From positions 49,168,001 to 49,232,000 of the forward strand of contig CM059432.1 of NCBI GenBank assembly GCA_030390025.1: 64,000 nucleotides of DNA, given 5' to 3'. Shown in pieces: positions 3,594-63,124 of the stretch. The first letter of the stretch is position 1. Each line of letters starts with the position of its first letter. The position numbers were made by a program, and so were the translations under genes. This DNA is from Squalus acanthias (Eukaryota). The notes beneath the pieces are model-generated. The model did not search any database and was not told where the DNA came from. It saw only the letters and a program-made list of their open reading frames with translations.

Positions 3594-4190
3594 GAGGCCT
3601 TCCTACAACGTATGAACGGACACCGCGCAACAATCGCCAGGCAGGATTGTTGCCTCCCAGTCGGGGAACACTTCAGCAGTCAAGGGCATTCAGCCTCGGA
3701 TCTGCGGGTGAGCGTTCTCCAAGGCGGCCTTCGAGACACACGACAACGCAAAATCATCAAGCAGAAACTGATAGCCAAGTTCCGCACTCATGAGGACGGC
3801 CTCAATAGGGATATCGGGTTCATGTCACGCTACAGAACGTGACTTGACATCGTTGTCTGTCTTTCCAGTTTTTAAAAAACAAACACAAAAAACCCCCCAA
3901 AAAACAAACCCAAAAAAACAAAAAAGCACTGCAGACAGCAGGATTTGACACGTTGGACCCCCTGTGACACATCTCATTGTCTTGGCTGTGCTCTTGGTGT
4001 GTCTTTGATGTAAGGACACCTTCCCTGAAAGATTGCATCTCTGCAGTTTCTGTGTTTATATTCTGTGAACTTTTGTAGATTCACTCATTGTAACTTTACC
4101 TGAGGAAGGGGCGATAGCTCCGAAAGCTTATAATTTTAAATAAATCTGTTGGACTATAACTTGGTGTTGTGCGATTTCTCATTTTTTTCC
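3594..4190 (+). mobile_element. Penelope-like retroelement 3' end: GIY-YIG endonuclease C-terminus plus 3' pseudo-LTR with hammerhead motif (family A)
   Basis: ORF 3612..3842 MNGHR..LPVGEHFSSQGHS..KLIAKFRTHEDGLNRD resembles PLE GIY-YIG C-termini; downstream UTR matches 43364-43716. Confidence 0.88.
4096..4133 (+). ncRNA. Minimal type-I hammerhead ribozyme-like motif (stem I mismatch)
   Basis: ttac-CTGAGGA-A-GGGGC-gata-GCTCC-GAAA-GCTT-ataa. Confidence 0.6.
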
Positions 4191-4228
4191 ATCTGAGGCC
4201 TTGCAAGCGACAAGCAGCACTCCCTGCA

Positions 4229-29562: not shown

Positions 29563-31730
29563 GATGGATAGGCCAGGGAGAGAGCTCGTCGCTTTAGCGA
29601 CCAGGCCTTGGTGACTCGGGTTGGCGCTGTTGAGCGGCGACGGGCAGTGCTGTACCCAGAGAATGGCAGGAGGCCATTGCCCCGGGAGTACCGAAGAGTC
29701 TGGAGGGAGGTGGCTCAGCACATCTCCTCAAGGAGCCTGGTGCCGAGGAGTCACACTCAGTGTAGGAAGAAGTTCAACGACCTCACTCGGGTGGTCAGGG
29801 TGAGCGGCTGCTTTTCAATACCTCTACATCCCTCCATCTTAACTTCACTCTGTGCCCAGAGGGTTTAAAAACCCAAATGCCCAGCACTCATCCAAGACCT
29901 ATGGCCATCTTATAAAAGCCACATGCACATTCCACACCTTGCACACAGTAAGGGCTTTTCAACTATGGGAGGCACATCAGGCAAACACAAGGCTGCACAC
30001 ATGAAGGGCTATTCAACTATGGGAGGCGCATCAAGCAAACACAAGGCTGCACACATGAAGGGTTATTCAACTATGGGAGGCGGTTCAGGCAAACACAAGG
30101 CTGCACACATGAAGGGCTATTCAACTATGGGAGGCGGTTCAGGCAAACAAATGATTGTACACATTAAGGGTTAGTCAACTATGGGAGGCACATCAGGCAA
30201 ACACATGGCTGCATACATTAAGGACTATTCAACTATGGGAGGCATATCAGGCAAACACATGGCTGCACAGTCACTCAGCCGCTGGCCTTTTTCTTGCAGG
30301 CCAAGCTTTCTCATAACAGGCGGGAGCAGCAATGCACAGGAGGAAGACTGACTGACCTACAGCCCCTGACCGATTTGGAGGTGAGAGTACACAGGATCGT
30401 TGCCAGCCAGGTCATAGGTGCTGTGGCCGCTGGAGAGGTCGACCTCCTTGGGGACTGCAATGGTATGTTCATCAGCTTTCTCTCCTCTCTCATACCACTT
30501 GCCCCTCACAACACCAGCCTTTTACACTTTCAATCCAACTAACTGTCTCCAGTCCTTGCTCCCTTCCTGCCCCCCTGCCCTCACGCTAAAGCCACTCTTG
30601 TACCTTCCTGCTTTCAGATAGTGAACCACCAGCTGACCAGCCTGTTCCTCAACCTACCAGTGGCAGCGACGTCCCAGGCGAGGAGGAAGAGGAAGCCGGA
30701 GCCTCACCGCCTGCGTCTCCCGAGGGTGACAATTCAGACACTGGGGCTACGCCTTCCCTGGAGGGGAGCAGGGGGGTCGGGTCTGATGAGGGCGAAGCTC
30801 CTGGACCCAGCGGCTGCAGCAAAGCCATGGGGGTAGGGAAGCTCAGGGGCCATCTCCCTGGAGGGTGAGTAGGCAAGCGAGTTCTGCTGCACAGGACTCG
30901 GATGAGGACCTCGACATCGCGGCCATGAATAGCCAGGCCTTGAGCATGCACACTGAGCTCATGGGTTCAATGGCAAGGGTGCCCGAAAGCATGGATGGAC
31001 TGACTAGGAGTGTGGAGGAGTCCGCCGCTAGCACAGCTGCAATCTGTGTGTAAACCCTTGAACCCATCCTTGTCTCATTGCAGAGGATGGTGGAATTCCA
31101 GGGAGACCATGGTGAACCAGAGCCCATGCCACGTGTAATGGGTGAGGTGGCAGGATCCATTGCAGCACAGGCTGACGCAACGCAACGGCTTAGTGCTGCA
31201 ATTGAGTCATTGGCTGGTGCCATCAAGTCTCAGACTGCTCTCATGCAGTCTTAGATTGATGTCACGCAAGCACTGACTGCTGCCATCCTCACTGGTTCGC
31301 CCACAGGGGATCTGACGGTACCGCAGCAGGCCAGCAATCTGTGCTTGAGCAGATTGCTCCGGATGCTAAGGTGCTGCCCCGTGGGAGTGGCAGTGTGTTG
31401 GTCGAGCAGGAAGGTGCTGTCATCTCTCAGGATGACAGCATTCCTGCTCCCACCACTGCCATTTCCCTATTGCACTTGGCACGGCCTGCAACACAGCCAG
31501 CCCAGACTGCTGCCGCCCATGCAGAGTTGGTGCAGTCTGCAGCCGATCCCTCCAGGCCCAGAGCTGGTCGAGGGCGTCCTTCAAGGTCATCAACAGGCTC
31601 TGGATCCAGCATTCAGCAGCCTTTCGCCAGCCTTGATGCAGCCACTGGGGCTACATTACGGAGGAGCAGTAGGGTGGGAAGGGGGGAAGTGCGCAGAGGA
31701 TGGGGATCACCCTCGAAGGCCCAACAGTAG
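29563..31730 (+). pseudogene. Harbinger Myb/SANT-like DNA-binding protein gene, 3 exons (~29563-29799, 30300-30462, 30619-31730), disrupted
   Basis: RRAVLYP..WREVAQHISSRSLVPRSHTQCRKKFNDL; GT-AG sites AGG|gtgag, ttgcag|GCC, ATG|gtatg, tttcag|ATA; frameshifts and stops. Confidence 0.85.
29941..30270. repeat. 54-bp minisatellite, six units, in intron 1 of the Myb-like gene
   Basis: Unit starts at 29941, 29995, 30049, 30103, 30157, 30211 (and partial at 30265). Confidence 0.95.
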
Positions 31731-31889
31731 GATGTGTAAATAAATGGGGGGGATGTTTGTGGGAAAGTTCAAGGTTCTTGTTATTATATTTGTTTAGTGT
31801 TTTGCCGTTTATCTCCATGTTGTGAGAACGAGTTTTGTTAGTTCATGATTTGTTGTGTTGGTTTCTAATTGTTTGTCCTGAATAAATGA

Positions 31890-31991
31890 AAATGAGAAGT
31901 CGCACAACACCAGGTTATAGTCCAACAGATTTATTTAATTTTATAAGCTTTCGGAGCTGTCGCTCCTTCCTCAGGTAAGTTAGCAGTGAGA
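31890..31991 (-). mobile_element. 102-bp Penelope family-A terminal fragment with hammerhead motif (31941-31978)
   Basis: Matches 4096-4186; 10-bp direct repeat GAATAAATGA at 31880-31889 and 31992-32001. Confidence 0.85.
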
Positions 31992-32147
31992 GAATAAATG
32001 ACACAGAGTTTGTAATATAAATATATTTTTTTATTCTAACTTTACATATTTGGTCATTTGACTCATTGCAGCTTTGCCCGGTAATAAGGGGTGCGGGATG
32101 CTTTCCATGTGCTTCTTCATCCCAGAAGCCATCTTCTCAGTAAGGGC

Positions 32148-43225: not shown

Positions 43226-44236
43226 GGGGGTAAATTATAACCCCTCCCCTGACCCCCCCCCCCCCCCCAAGCGTGAATGGTGCAATGGGAGGGGTTAAGA
43301 TCAGGCCAAGTCCATTTACGCACAGTTCTCGCCCGGCAACATCTTATCTTCACCGACTTTGAAGTCACGCTACAGAACGTGACTCAACATCGTTGTCTGT
43401 CTTTCCAGTTTTTAAAAGAAAAACACACACCAAAAAAAAAGTTAAAAGCTCAACTGCAGACAGCAGGATTTGACACGTTGGACCCCCTGTGACCCATCTC
43501 ATTGTCTTGGCTGTGCTCTGGTGTGTCTTTGATGTAAGGCCTCCCTGAAAGATTGTATCTCTGCAGACAAATTGCTTTCGGTGTTTATATACTGTGAAAT
43601 ATTGTAGATTCCCTCATTGTAACTCTACCTGACGAAGGGGCAACAGCTCCGAAAGCTTGTAATTTTAAATAAATCTGTTGGACTATAACCTGGTGTTGTG
43701 CGACTTCTCATTTTTGTCCACCCCAGTCCAACACCGGCATCTCCCCATCATGACTTTGAAGTCGTCCAAGGCTCCCGCTGCAGGCGAGCCAGGGACTAAT
43801 TAAAATTTAAAAGCCATCATCAGTGCTGCAACGTGATTTGTATGATGACGCGGGGAGGCCTGCCTGGTGTCAAACCCGCCAGAGGCCAAGCTAAGTAAGA
43901 TATTTTATTCTTCGGGAAGAAATCCTCAGGCCTCTCTTGCCCGGGCGTCCCCCACCCTCTCCACATCGGCATTTGTTTGGGGAGAAAGAACCCCCTACCC
44001 CTTAACTTATGCCGGGGTCCGTTCCCAAATGTCCTCACCGGAGGACGGCTCCCGCCCGCTGGCCTTAACGTCATGCCCGCCAGCTTCCTGCTGGACACTG
44101 GTTTTAAACATGGCCCTTCTGTGAAAATCAGCCAGTTCTCCACTCCCCGGGTTTTGTCGCCCGCTTCGGGGCTCGTGTGCACTGTACTCGATTTCCCTCC
44201 CCCCCCCCCCGCCCCACCCCAATTAAAATTGGGGCC
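43226..44236. mobile_element. Harbinger-type MITE (family II) hosting a Penelope pLTR
   Basis: Ends gggggtaaattataac / ttaaaattggggcc. Confidence 0.65.
43364..43751 (+). mobile_element. Solo Penelope pseudo-LTR with tail and hammerhead motif (43626-43661)
   Basis: Homologous to 3824-4186; 12-bp duplication GACTTTGAAGTC at 43355-43366 and 43752-43763. Confidence 0.9.
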
Positions 44237-46347: not shown

Positions 46348-49320
46348 TGGAATCAAGGAGGGAAAAGGTTGCACCCAGATTCAATGACGTTTCCCTGGAC
46401 TTACTGCCTATGCAGTAAGGGCGAGGAAGGAGGTCTTTTTCCCAAGCAATGGGGAAATAAAACCTACTGCCACAACAAAGAAGATGTGGTCGGATGTGGC
46501 CCAAGAGGTCAACAGCAGGAGTGTGATCATGAGGACTTGGAGGCAGTGCAGGAAACATTTTAATGACCTAACCCGGTCAGGAAAGGTAAGCTAAGTTGAA
46601 AGTTCACCTACATCCTGTAGCACATTGCCCCTTCTCACTCTGTCTTGTCAAACATACTCCATTCACATCTCTCCTCACACCTACTTAAGTTTCAGCAGCA
46701 TCCATCGTCCCTTTCTATGCACTTCCTCACCTCCCCCTTCCTCCATCCACTACTGGCACTCACCCCAATCCTTATGTAATGTGATATCACCTCAGTTAGC
46801 TCCCACTATTCTCAGCGCACATTCTCAAATGCATGCCAGTGCCACTTGTGATGCATCTGCCTAATAGTCACCCTCGGCGAATGCACTGCGACCATCAGAT
46901 GCACATGTGCCTTACAGCCACTCATAGGTCTGCTGTGCCTTCTTGCAGAAGAGAGTGCAAAATACAAGGGAGAGGGAAAGGACCAGAGGCGACCCCCCAG
47001 ATTGTGGAGCTCACAAATGCCAAACAGGAGGCTTTGGACATAAGTAGCATATCAGCGTCCCTGACCATCAGAGATGGAGAGATTGGGGGGGCAAAAATTC
47101 GGTACAGCTCCATTTGGAGCGCTAAAACTTTAAGGGCTAGAAATGCGGTGCAATTGCGCCTCTCGATAGCGCAAACGACTTTTCGCCCGGGCGCAGCACT
47201 GCTAACGACTCCCACTAATTCAGCGGGAATTTAGCGGTGGAGGTAACCGGTAGCGCCCTGCTCCACTGGCGATAACGACATCATCACCGTGCGCAGCACC
47301 CCGTTTCCGCCCCACCTGCAAAATTGGCCCGCGTCCCCTGAATCTGCGCCGGGCAATGACAGCGACCGATTCAGGGTGCGGGAACGGAGCAGCAGGAGGC
47401 TTGCGGGGCGATAAGTAAAGGGAAAGTGGCGGGCGGGAAAAAAAAATTGGTCGACTTACTTGTCGCGGCCCGTTGCCTCTTTGAACGCGGGGTCCATGCC
47501 ACGATCTGGCAGCCCGGCACTCCTCTTGTGTGCCAGGCTGCTGGCACGGCACCCCACTCCCCGGTGGTCCAGGTAGGGCCCCGCAGAGTTGTGGGATTGG
47601 GCCCTCCCCTTTAATGAGGGGAAGAGCCCTTCCTTGCGGCAGTGCTACGTAGCCCAGTGTGTAGCGCTGTAGAACACACCGCCCCGATATTTGGGGTTAG
47701 TGCTCTAAGAAGGAAGTGGAGCGCTTGAATTAGTGCTCCACCTCCCTCTTGGGGCGCTAGAACTGAAGTTACCAATCGCTGGCACTATTTTTTGCCTGGC
47801 GCTGAATTTAGCGCCCAGGCGATGTTAGCGACCCAAAATGGTCGCTAATGAATTTCCCCCCCTAAAAGTTGAAGAATTAGCGTCAGGCGCTAATCATTGT
47901 CGACTTCCGCAAAATTCATTGTTAGCGCTCCAAGAGGGAAGTGGAGCGCTAAATCAAGCGCTACACTCCTAACTTAGGGCCATAACCTCTGAGAGTGGGG
48001 CGCTACCAGCAGAGCGATAAAGAAGGTCATGCGCAGTCCAAACGGCACTCTTTAATCACACAGGCTGCATCCATCTCTTAAAGGGAAGGGCCAATCACAC
48101 TGTATAACCTCAGTCATCAGTGGTGTTTTTCAACGCGATCTGGGCGACTGCCATTGCAGCCCCCAGCACTTTCAGAAAGTGCAGCGTTTGGAGATGTTTG
48201 AGGAAAAGGTGTAAAAACATTTGCGCAGGCAGCAGACTGGTGCAAGTAATAAATAGTGCGATCAATGAAAGCGCCTTTTTCGCGATGTTCAAGCGACACG
48301 GAAGCATTCCCTTTAATTACCGCTCCTGCAGTGCACTTCCGAGTGCACAAATCCTCCTCTTACTGGCGTTGTCGGCGCGAGGCACTAAAGCAGGGGCGAA
48401 AGGCAATTTTGCATCGGGGCCGTTAACGGGGCATTGCACACGCATTGACGTCACCATGTGAGAGGCATTAGAGGCCTAGGCACTAACAGTTAGCGCCAGT
48501 GCTAATTCACCACTGAAGGTCGCGTGCAGCATTGGATTCGCCGCGGCCAGGCGCTAACCCCTTCGCGCCCCCGCCAGGCGCTAACATGAGGCGCTAACCT
48601 ACCGAATATTGCGGCCTGGGACTTTGTTGCTGCAGGGTGACAGAATTAACCTCTCCGACCCACATCTCCTACAAGACTAAGTCACCTTGACTTGAATTAA
48701 GCATTGAGTGAAATATCATCTTAAACATGTGGAGTTGCAATATTTTTGCATTCTCATGACTAAATCATATCCGTCTCTTCTCTCCTCAGAGCCATCACGC
48801 GAAGAACAGCAGTCTTCACCCAGAGATGACGAGGATTCCTCAGAGGAGCTCATTCCTTCTGAGGGTGCACTGTCACAGGATACATGCCAGCCAGGCGCCA
48901 GGGCTAATACAAGCACTTCGGTGGGTCCTCTTGGACAGTTAGGTGGGTTCTCACCTGGTGACTCACAGTTCACAAGCGAGCACGAGCAGAGAGTGGTGGT
49001 AGGGACAGCTGTGGAAAGTCCATGTCGGAGGGCGCACTCCTCTACAAGCTCTGCTCAGCTGGGCATAGAAACTGAATCCCAGGGGCCATGAATGAAAAGG
49101 AGAGTGGTAGAGGGTCAGCAGAAAATTTGCGAGGTACTAGCAGATGTGTCAGGCACACTGTCCACAACAGCACAGAGGATGGAGGAGTCCAGCTGAAGTA
49201 TTTGTGAATGGATGTCACAGGCCATTGCGAGGACGTTTTCCATGGATAGTCTGGCCTCACCTGTGGAACTTCAATTGCATAACTCTAATCAGTCCATGCA
49301 GGCCCTGACCACAGCCGTGC
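46348..49320 (+). pseudogene. Harbinger Myb/SANT-like gene, spliced, disrupted
   Basis: MESRREKVAPRFND..WSDVAQEVNSRSVIMRTWRQCRKHFNDLTRSGK|gtaag; exon 2 (from ~46949) split by MITEs; exon 3 from ~48791. Confidence 0.82.
47087..48616. mobile_element. Harbinger family-I MITE in Myb exon 2, containing a second MITE at 47134-47862
   Basis: Outer TSD TGG, inner TSD TAA; removing both restores exon peptide TIRDGEIGTLLLQ. Confidence 0.85.
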
Positions 49321-53417: not shown

Positions 53418-53720
53418 TATTTACAGCACAGAAACAGGCCATTCAGCCCAATAGGTCCATGCCGATGTTCATGCTCCACATGAGCCTCCTCCCACTGTTC
53501 TTCATCAAACCCCAGTTCTGACGAAGGGTCATCAACCTGAAACGTCTACTCTGTTTCTCTCTCTGCAGATGCTGCTTGACCTGCTGAGTATTTCCAGCAT
53601 TTTCTGGTTTTATTTCCCATCAACATATCCTCTATTCCTTTCTTCCTCATGTGCTTATCTAGCTTCACCTTAAATGCTATTCGCATCAACTACTCCTTGT
53701 GGTATCGAGTTCCACATTTT
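53418..53720 (-). mobile_element. CR1 3' fragment containing a Penelope family-B insert
   Basis: acagcacagaaacaggccattc..cttatctagcttc..ttaaatgc; homologous to 17060-17250. Confidence 0.75.
53514..53615 (+). mobile_element. Penelope-associated family-B terminal fragment with GUC-type hammerhead motif (53514-53550)
   Basis: agtt-CTGACGA-AGGGTcatcaACCT-GAAA-CGTC-tact; downstream part shared with 3520-3590. Confidence 0.75.
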
Positions 53721-61180: not shown

Positions 61181-62803
61181 CACAATTTCAAATTTAATTT
61201 CACAATTTGTCATGGTGGGACTCACAAACTCTGGGTTGATAAACCAGTACCATAGCTATTACCCTACCGTACCCATAGTAGTAAAAAAAGAACTCCATAA
61301 TAAAGCATAAATTAGTGTATAATCTAAAGATTTTTAAGTGCAGTCGCGATTTCAGATATTTTTTAGTGAAAATGTATGAACTTCCAAAAACAGACTCAGC
61401 AAACTATCAGTGAGATTTGGAATAACTGCTTCAGATGCAGAAATAAAATTAAACATTTACTGGTTTATAGTTGTTTGATACATCATTGATTGATAGCATA
61501 TCTGTAATTCAAAGATCATGCAGGCACTCTATTGACTGTAAATGGCAGGGAGGAAATTCATTCATTTCCCCACGTTTGTCGATGCTGATTTGTCTGACAG
61601 TGGGCCTGAAAAGTGCAGTGTGATCGACAGGTGAATTTGATGGCCTGCTACTTTGTTCATTTAACAAACTCAGTCAGCAGTATTTCAACTGGGTACAAAA
61701 GGGATTTCTTGCTGTTCTCAGCTACTCTATCAAGCTGTTTCAGGACAACCTGTCCTGCACAATAGAGCTCCTGCGAACTGCGAGTGTTCTGATTGACCGC
61801 AACACAAGAAGGGGGCAGCTAACAATATCTGGCGTTGATCTGAGATTAGATCTGTTTTTTTTAAATCACTCCAAAATAATACAGAGGAGGGCTCACATTC
61901 CGCCTGGGGTCCACCAGTCTCCTGCCATAATTCTGGCACCGAATTTCAGCTCCAGGTAATTTTATGGTGTGTCCTTATGCCAGGTTTTGGGTCAGACATT
62001 GTGCCATCTGTGGGTGTCAGTTTGGAAGCAGACTGCCAGTAATTATTTTGATATTGTTCTGTGTTTAATTGAGAAATGATCTGCAGTTGATTTCTGGAAA
62101 ATTCTATGGCAACATTCTTAAAGTAAATTGATCTATACACTGTTAATCCGGTCTTCACACTGTTTGCAACATGTTGACTAACTCTATTCCACTTTTCTCC
62201 CTCCATCTCCTGAAGGGTTTGACTCAAGCCGGTGCATGGTACCATAAGCAATGGCCACCCTTGGTTACCTTGTTCAAGTGTTCATTGTTCATGGTGCTGA
62301 TAAGCTATTTGTTTATGGTGGCCACTGCAGTTGAGTTAGATCCTGCTTTCACCCAGCATCTGCGCACGGGCGCGGGGTGGCGGGGGGGATAATTTTGACT
62401 TCAATGGAAATAAACATTGGGAGAGATTGTAGTCCCCACATCCCCCTTTGGTTGAGATCAGCTATCTCAGCATAAACTGATGATCATACCCAGGACTGTA
62501 CTATTTTGTATAGCTCAATTCCACAATGACTTTCCCAACTGATCCATTGGGGAAGCCAGAAGAATTGAACTACGTGTGATTGGTGACGAACAATGCAAAC
62601 ATTCCCTATGTTTTACTAACATGAAATAGGTTTTGGGAATTAGTGCTCCTGGAGCAGGGTTTCACGCAACAGGAGTGCATATCTGGAATTCAGATGTGGA
62701 GGTCAACATGCCATTCGGAATGAACCCCACGCATGTAGGGAGTGTATTATAGGAAATCTCAGGTGCACAGCCTGTAATCATTTAAATGACTGGAAAATGA
62801 TCA

Positions 62804-63050
62804 TGATGCGGAGATGCCGGTTTGGACTGGGGTGGACAAAAATGAGAAGTCGTACAACACCAGGTTATAGTCCAACAGTTTTATTTAAAATTACGAGCTT
62901 TCGGAGCGTTGCTCCTTCTTCAGGTACAAGTACAGTGAGTACTTGTACAAGTACTGTACTTGTACCTGAAGAAGGAGCAGCGCTCCGAAAGCTCGTAATT
63001 TTAAATAAAACTGTTGGACTATAACCTGGTGTTGTGCGACTTCTCATTTT
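62804..63050. mobile_element. Inverted Penelope family-A pLTR pair (palindrome) with tail and two hammerhead motifs
   Basis: Arms 62837-62936 / 62953-63052 with 2 mismatches; 13-bp duplication TGGAAAATGATCA at 62791-62803 and 63051-63063. Confidence 0.92.
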
Positions 63051-63124
63051 TGGAAAATGATCAGCTGTGCACCTGTGATGCACCCCGTTGCAAGCACAGG
63101 ATTGCGGGATTGGCCAATAGAAGA

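Follow-up and report, generated by a model that had tools for sequence, protein, structure and literature searches.

What is a palindrome that carries a hammerhead ribozyme motif on either strand, how did it come to lie where it does, and do its ribozymes work? These questions are raised by a locus at positions 62791–63063 of the 64 000 nt stretch of Squalus acanthias DNA analysed here (the window, to which all such positions refer). A sequence-only reading had taken it for a young, ORF-less Penelope-like insertion with twin hammerheads. We arrive, with a probability of roughly 0.8, at the view that the unit is a short head-to-head insertion of an element leader, in which both ends of a staggered 13 bp cut likely primed the copying of leader RNA, and that its hammerheads would be inert.

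The palindrome consists of two inverted arms of 100 nt (62837–62936 and 62953–63052) that are 98% complementary and separated by 16 nt. We recovered them at the coordinates first proposed and located their two mismatches at 62853 and 62909; both are single changes, and neither falls on a CpG. (One of them is also found in single arms of other copies.) The tail-bearing arm continues past 62936 to 62939 and thus occupies 62801–62939 on the minus strand, corresponding to −136 to +4 of the element, counted from the ATG. The tail-less inverted arm (62953–63052, plus strand) corresponds to −133 to −34 and starts at the A of an initiator-like TCACT. The one-sided tail (62804–62836, minus strand; 33 nt) is leader sequence directly 5′ of the ATG of the element's ORF, and the match to 43717–43751 claimed for it holds except for one substitution and a 1 nt deletion, the deletion also setting it apart from the family. 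The base lost, at 62821, may reflect a polymorphism or an assembly error; the contig of a second sample has one gap there. A 13 nt direct repeat (62791–62803 and 63051–63063, plus strand) bounds the unit, in keeping with the flanking duplication noted earlier. It overlaps the element by 3 nt on the left, which also fit the start-codon region, and by 2 nt on the right, where the arm's final 2 nt also serve as the start of the repeat. Around the insertion lies a further inverted repeat of 16 nt (94%; 62756–62771 and 63064–63079), so that the empty site is itself a small hairpin, with a 32 nt loop containing the target 13-mer.

The palindrome is a real and recent insertion. Single contigs of two related organisms join 62790 straight to 63051 and hold the 13-mer once; the orthologous site is therefore empty there, and 260 nt were inserted. 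The proposed youth of the insertion is borne out by these contigs, whose left flanks differ from the window at 18/391 and 20/470 letters, plus gaps. A search of the S. acanthias genome with the flanks found no paralogous empty site. It is extremely improbable that an assembly or library artefact produced the palindrome. None of the contigs listed spans its centre, and across the right junction there are just three insertion letters, in one run, so that centre and right junction rest on the assembly; however, a second sample of this organism has a contig that reaches 32 nt across the left junction, the duplication agrees with the single copy at the relatives' empty site, the two arms differ from one another at two positions, and the ends are asymmetric in just the way that is the rule for the family.

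The family was traced by genome-wide match counts (genome size 3.7 Gb). The right arm has 100% matches at no fewer than 40 places (the best 40 of 590 candidates scored), and reverse transcriptase (RT) and GIY-YIG-like frames lie upstream of many such arms. A 429 aa piece gave at least 98 matches at ≥ 95% identity among 65 730 candidates. Exact matches in the genome numbered 947 for the hammerhead 24-mer, 4353 for the 26-mer after the cut and 10 922 for a 43-mer of a sister subfamily. One locus, L102 (G000:C1:138006500–138015500), holds an 891 aa open frame whose ATG is the point at which the tail ends, and the frame matches Pfam RVT_1 (E 5.6e-9). Its C-terminal 160 aa gave no Pfam match to a GIY-YIG domain, even at E 10; from a VY...YIG motif with conserved R, E and N we take this part to be the endonuclease. 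A hammerhead motif lies directly 5′ of the ATG and again 3′ of the ORF, as in the pseudo-LTRs (pLTRs) of endonuclease-bearing (EN+) Penelope-like elements (PLEs), and L102 has the single ORF with RT and C-terminal endonuclease (the latter by motif) of that class, whereas the window copy has no ORF. The inverted, 5′-truncated copy with a 30–40 bp tail at one end, likewise typical of EN+ PLEs, is seen in the window copy and in 32 of 58 sampled insertions. The translated frames of the family, L102 included, share a CX4CX2C linker; such a zinc-finger-like linker (CX2-5CxxC) between RT and EN is described for Neptune and Nematis (PMC8557442), and the family therefore has the linker of the Neptune clade, a feature common to Nematis too. 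In L102 the 5′ pLTR has its first base in common with the hammerhead core, and the 3′ UTR is broken by about 800 nt of other sequence.

From the continuity of ATG and tail in L102, together with the family matches, it follows that the arms correspond to the element's leader (pLTR). Judged from these comparisons of sequence, the window locus is a copy of the leader of a young, very common PLE family encoding RT and GIY-YIG. The proposed Penelope-like origin is thus upheld by the family matches, the RT frames and L102, as is the lack of an ORF, the insertion consisting of leader copies only. We hold this identity, jointly with the passenger status of the ribozymes discussed below, with high confidence. 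Older copies of the same family, 83–87% identical to a young copy, lie in the window at 3605–4191 (plus strand), 31889–31996 (minus) and 43364–43751 (plus); all three have a hammerhead, one has the tail and two the tail-less end.

The layout of the window copy proved to be that of its family. We examined 58 distinct insertions, a non-random set drawn from the top-scoring matches after two duplicates had been dropped. An inverted arm lies adjacent in 36 of them; 32 of these 36 are simple two-arm units, two are complex, and in two the inverted arm ends far short. Throughout the 32 units the outer end of the inverted arm falls at −29 to −40 and the end of the tail arm at +1 to +5, and 22 have a duplication of 12–13 bp. 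The −29 to −40 end also terminates tail-less single copies. Head-to-head arms with one tail are hence the commonest product of the family in this sample (32/58), and the window locus is probably one of thousands of such stumps. Among the first 100 listed matches to the 26-mer there were 29 head-to-head pairs, with cuts spaced 62–86 nt apart in 15, less in 3 and > 200 nt in 11; in the window the spacing is 100 nt. The inverted pseudo-LTRs with a one-sided tail to which the earlier reading drew attention are therefore present and at the same time nothing special, the arrangement of inverted pLTRs, one-sided tail and target-site duplication (TSD) having been described (PMC3846280, PMC8557442), and hammerhead pairs on opposite strands having been noted as well (PMC4209133).

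Where the arms end bears on how they were made. We took 91 arms at loci on the 26-mer match list, picked regardless of upstream sequence, and scored how far their match to long copies continues past the cut: none stopped within 0–4 nt, 5 at 5–14 nt, 12 at 15–29 nt, 39 at 30–46 nt, 5 at 47–63 nt and 9 at 64–80 nt, while 21 went further. No arm starts at the cut (0/91), nor does any of 32 short palindromes have both arms starting there; stumps that begin at the ribozyme cut were accordingly rejected. Most long copies have the A of an initiator-like TCACT 42 nt upstream of the cut, 17–23 nt after TATATA, and the window arms extend 42 and 45 nt upstream of it. A rotifer pLTR has the same layout of TATA and TCACT (PMC3846280). 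The pile-up of arm ends at the initiator-like site suggests twin priming on short leader RNAs, and the stumps would then be run-off copies of such an RNA. On balance we regard the transcription start as the probable stopping point of copying. The pile-up also coincides with short GTAC palindromes, and these alone could make a joining hotspot, counter to the reading as a transcription start.

The centre of the window palindrome (62937–62954) contains no plain spacer and consists of two templated 10-mers. Specifically, the path runs antisense to 62939, sense over 62939–62948, antisense over 62945–62954 and from there sense; neighbouring segments overlap by 1, 4 and 2 nt. Such overlapping templated junctions are a signature of microhomology joining with templated fill-in. 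At another locus, L047, a centre of 68 nt matches sequence near the start of the element ORF and represents a piece captured from elsewhere in the RNA.

What is observed directly comprises the identity of the family, the duplicated target, the empty site in the relatives, the ends of the arms and the templated centre; the course of events that we propose from these observations is as follows. An element protein, supplied in trans, would nick both target strands with a 13 bp stagger. Priming from one target 3′ end would take place at the start codon (+1 to +5) and from the other some 34 nt farther upstream, leaving a tail on one side only. Each cDNA would be extended as far as the 5′ end of an RNA template that had not been cut and that begins at the initiator-like site (−133), and microhomology, together with templated fill-in, would then join the two ends. 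A Poseidon PLE protein has been shown in vitro to nick both strands of the target and to extend them, with two adjacent start sites on an uncut RNA bounding the tail (PMC11167929); that study concerns another clade, in which the tail lies inside the ORF. The two end classes of the present family (+1 to +5 and −29 to −40) fit this two-start-site scheme.

Two other routes to a palindrome have to be set against this one. A single cDNA from one nick might have folded back at its 3′ end and primed itself, the second arm then being joined to the target at about −34. Self-priming of this sort has been proposed (PMC3846280), and it would sit well with the correlated inner ends of the two arms (Spearman 0.88; within 25 nt in 18/32 units as against 4.0 by permutation, some exact ties being alignment-end artefacts, with centre loops of 39–68 nt in L001, L044 and L047), with the single subfamily haplotype usually shared by both arms, long palindromes included, and with the perfect centres of many units: 15 of 32 very short palindromes (G000) are centred exactly on the AGCT of the helix III remnant, 4–5 nt upstream of the cut, and 25 loci share one identical, perfect GTAC centre. 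Yet a cDNA primed at the tail should give a longer tail arm, whereas in 14 of the 32 units it is the inverted arm that is longer; the fixed end at −29 to −40, found on tail-less single copies too, is left unexplained; and in two long single insertions (L103 and L105) the arms differ at 2 and 4 diagnostic sites. We lean towards twin priming, because either arm may be the longer (inverted arm in 14, tail arm in 13, ties in 5), and consider fold-back possible though rather improbable.

The common GTAC centre could also be read, along with the modal size of stumps (62–86 nt between cuts in 15/29 of the pairs among the first 100 listed matches), as the mark of a non-autonomous mini-element copied whole, in the manner of a SINE or retrozyme. 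This is very unlikely. The 25-mer at the window centre has a single match in 3.7 Gb, which argues against dispersal of the whole unit, centres are diverse across loci, and the shared ones coincide with natural GTAC palindromes, at which unconnected joining events would arise repeatedly.

It remains to ask what the ribozymes do. Each arm contains CTGAAGA-A-GGAGC-3 nt-GCTCC-GAAA-GCTC between TAC and GTA, that is, a 5 bp stem II, a 3 bp stem I, AGCT and a CUC triplet. The motifs lie at 62963–62997 on the plus strand (loop II AGC; core from 62966; predicted cut after C62994) and at 62892–62926 on the minus strand (loop II AAC; core from 62923; predicted cut after C62895). The sequence thus confirms the hammerhead core and the CUC triplet put forward for it and gives the same predicted cut, after C62994, and the core is that of a minimal type I hammerhead (CUGANGA, GAAA, UH). 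A covariance-model search had been suggested as a further check; Rfam returned no hammerhead for the whole window (E ≤ 1) or for one arm (E ≤ 10), only chance matches to microRNA hairpins below their cut-offs. Stems I and II are nevertheless backed by covariation. In 27 distinct natural variants 99.5% of cells were paired and 7/8 pairs showed two-sided changes, a level that 0/500 shuffles reached, with the proviso that stem II is biased because the filter for collecting variants demanded four of its five pairs, stem I alone being unbiased. Stem I occurs as TAC/GTA (275), CAC/GTG (49) and GTT/AAC (12). This comparative evidence indicates that selection acts on the motif in the lineages of the element; it does not show the same for the window copy.

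Predicted folding speaks against an active ribozyme at this locus. The palindrome folds at −196.5 kcal/mol (z −31; 0/200 shuffles as good), and in a read-through RNA the forced hammerhead fold costs 65.8 (plus strand) or 61.6 (minus strand) kcal/mol; the cost falls below 10 kcal/mol only for RNAs that start within about 40 nt of the core. In the isolated arm the probability of stem II is 0.04, and with the tail 0.4. Either strand places its ribozyme downstream of its own antisense arm; read-through RNA would make that arm first, so the ribozyme would pair as it emerges. The suggestion that a read-through hairpin sequesters the ribozyme is therefore supported, by a fold penalty of about 60 kcal/mol in the predicted RNA. 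In contrast, the label 'twin hammerhead' overstated the case: the motifs are on opposite strands, so that each transcript holds one ribozyme and no dimer in cis is possible. Minimal PLE hammerheads are inactive as monomers and weak as dimers (PMC4209133), and PLE hammerheads are protein-assisted (PMC11167929). The window ribozymes are probably passengers, and both are predicted to be inert at this locus.

That the locus is instead a working RNA element, be it a ribozyme under regulation or a locus whose siRNAs help to keep the family silent, we regard as most unlikely, although its cores are intact, its stems covary across subfamilies and siRNAs do arise from Penelope inverted repeats in transgenic Drosophila (PMC3681739). 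The covariation reflects element lineages and not this copy, the insertion is missing from two close relatives, the hammerhead fold is predicted to be blocked in read-through RNA, and the published behaviour of minimal PLE hammerheads, inactive as monomers, weak as dimers and protein-assisted, speaks against activity here (PMC4209133, PMC11167929). In a Pfam scan of 220 stop-free stretches of ≥ 48 aa, drawn from the window outside its repeats and from roughly 7 kb past its limits, no host exon was found near the insertion; short exons escape a scan of this kind, and the locus may still be intronic. The single match above cut-off was a Myb/SANT-like, transposon-type domain at 46388–46591 (plus strand), presumably from a Harbinger-type DNA transposon. 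Elsewhere in the window, 53515–53555 (plus strand) holds a hammerhead of a different family, with stem II GGGTC/AACCT and ACGT instead of AGCT, and related motifs occur at other loci. A hairpin at 31374–31475 (plus strand) has a miR-34/449-like 5′ arm and scored 24.6 bits against a cut-off of 60.4 for Rfam mir-449 (E 0.5); it is probably due to chance or a repeat.

Other stumps of the family display a feature that is absent from both arms of the window copy. Among head-to-head pairs with both cores intact (pairs lacking a full core in one arm were excluded), the arms differed at two or more subfamily-diagnostic sites in 13/38 stumps (spacing ≤ 120 nt) as against 3/39 longer pairs (Fisher p 0.005), a count inflated by the 6 of these 13 stumps that had been sampled for one particular core type; in an unselected sample the figures were 7/17 and 0/4. 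Of the 13 discordant stumps, 12 have one tail and a TSD, and no TSD turned up for the thirteenth. Among the three long discordant cases, one is probably two separate insertions. The discordance is mostly a short patch whose flanks are like the partner arm. Patched stumps include L208, L211, L218, L222, L225, L244, L251 and L270–L299, with a hammerhead patch of another subfamily in one arm. A 40-mer that joins the core of the abundant subfamily to the flanks of the window subfamily has 154 matches, with one pair among the first 100 listed, and 12 of 16 sampled stumps containing it have a partner arm with differences at two or more sites.

Copying from two whole templates of different subfamilies is weakened as an explanation of the discordance, because the difference is confined to the patch while the flanks fit the partner arm. 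Cutting and re-ligation with the abundant subfamily is unsupported as well, the base at the cut being of the partner type in 4/4 unselected cases. The simplest cause is later gene conversion near a fragile palindrome centre. A more far-reaching view, which we think unlikely, is that the stumps form a genome-wide record of PLE insertion, with both strands primed on an uncut 133 nt leader RNA, and that the frequent one-arm patches of 10–30 nt, which replace the hammerhead region next to the centre and are mostly of the most abundant subfamily, arose during insertion, by template exchange between RNAs that would have been brought together at the hammerhead. If the patches did come from insertion and not from conversion, they would point, for the first time from genomic data, to what the PLE hammerhead does in vivo.

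How far, then, does the family resemble known systems? Pen2a_Av, an EN+ PLE of Adineta vaga (PMC3846280; scheme in PMC8557442), is like the window unit in its head-to-head inverted pLTRs, tail at one end (30–40 bp in the Pen2a_Av type), TSD, palindrome at the inverted junction and, in its pLTR, TATATATA followed by TCACT (PMC3846280). It differs in that the window copy has no ORF between its repeats, arms of leader only, and a tail that ends at the start codon and not inside the ORF. PAc, a Poseidon PLE of Anolis carolinensis, is similar in having two initiation sites that bound the tail, and there the hammerhead is unnecessary for insertion, the template being uncut RNA (PMC11167929). However, PAc belongs to the Penelope/Poseidon clade and starts about 111–118 nt inside the ORF, whereas the window family has the CX4CX2C linker, and its start sites are +1 to +5 and −29 to −40; moreover, short target overlaps are found at both ends here, while priming of PAc was reported to occur without homology (PMC11167929). 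Stem II is 5 bp in the window motif as against 7–8 bp in the PLE hammerheads of Schistosoma (PMC4209133), and the motif is absent from the results and discussion of that paper. The Drosophila Penelope copies that give siRNA are rearranged and form inverted repeats, as the window palindrome does; theirs are long and were shown to be transcribed (PMC3681739).

As a single locus, the insertion carries little weight and may serve as a lineage marker at most. Its layout is known in print, and the mosaic one-arm patches were not found there; nor did our search, with subscription journals and Repbase outside it, turn up a paper that deals with such stumps in these animals, with PLE twin priming or with mosaic arms. 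The pattern across the family matters more, since the steps of PLE integration that follow priming are still unproven. Collectively, the two fixed start sites, the halt of copying at a putative transcription start, the lack of ends at the cut and the mosaic arms yield predictions that can be tested in the existing in vitro system.
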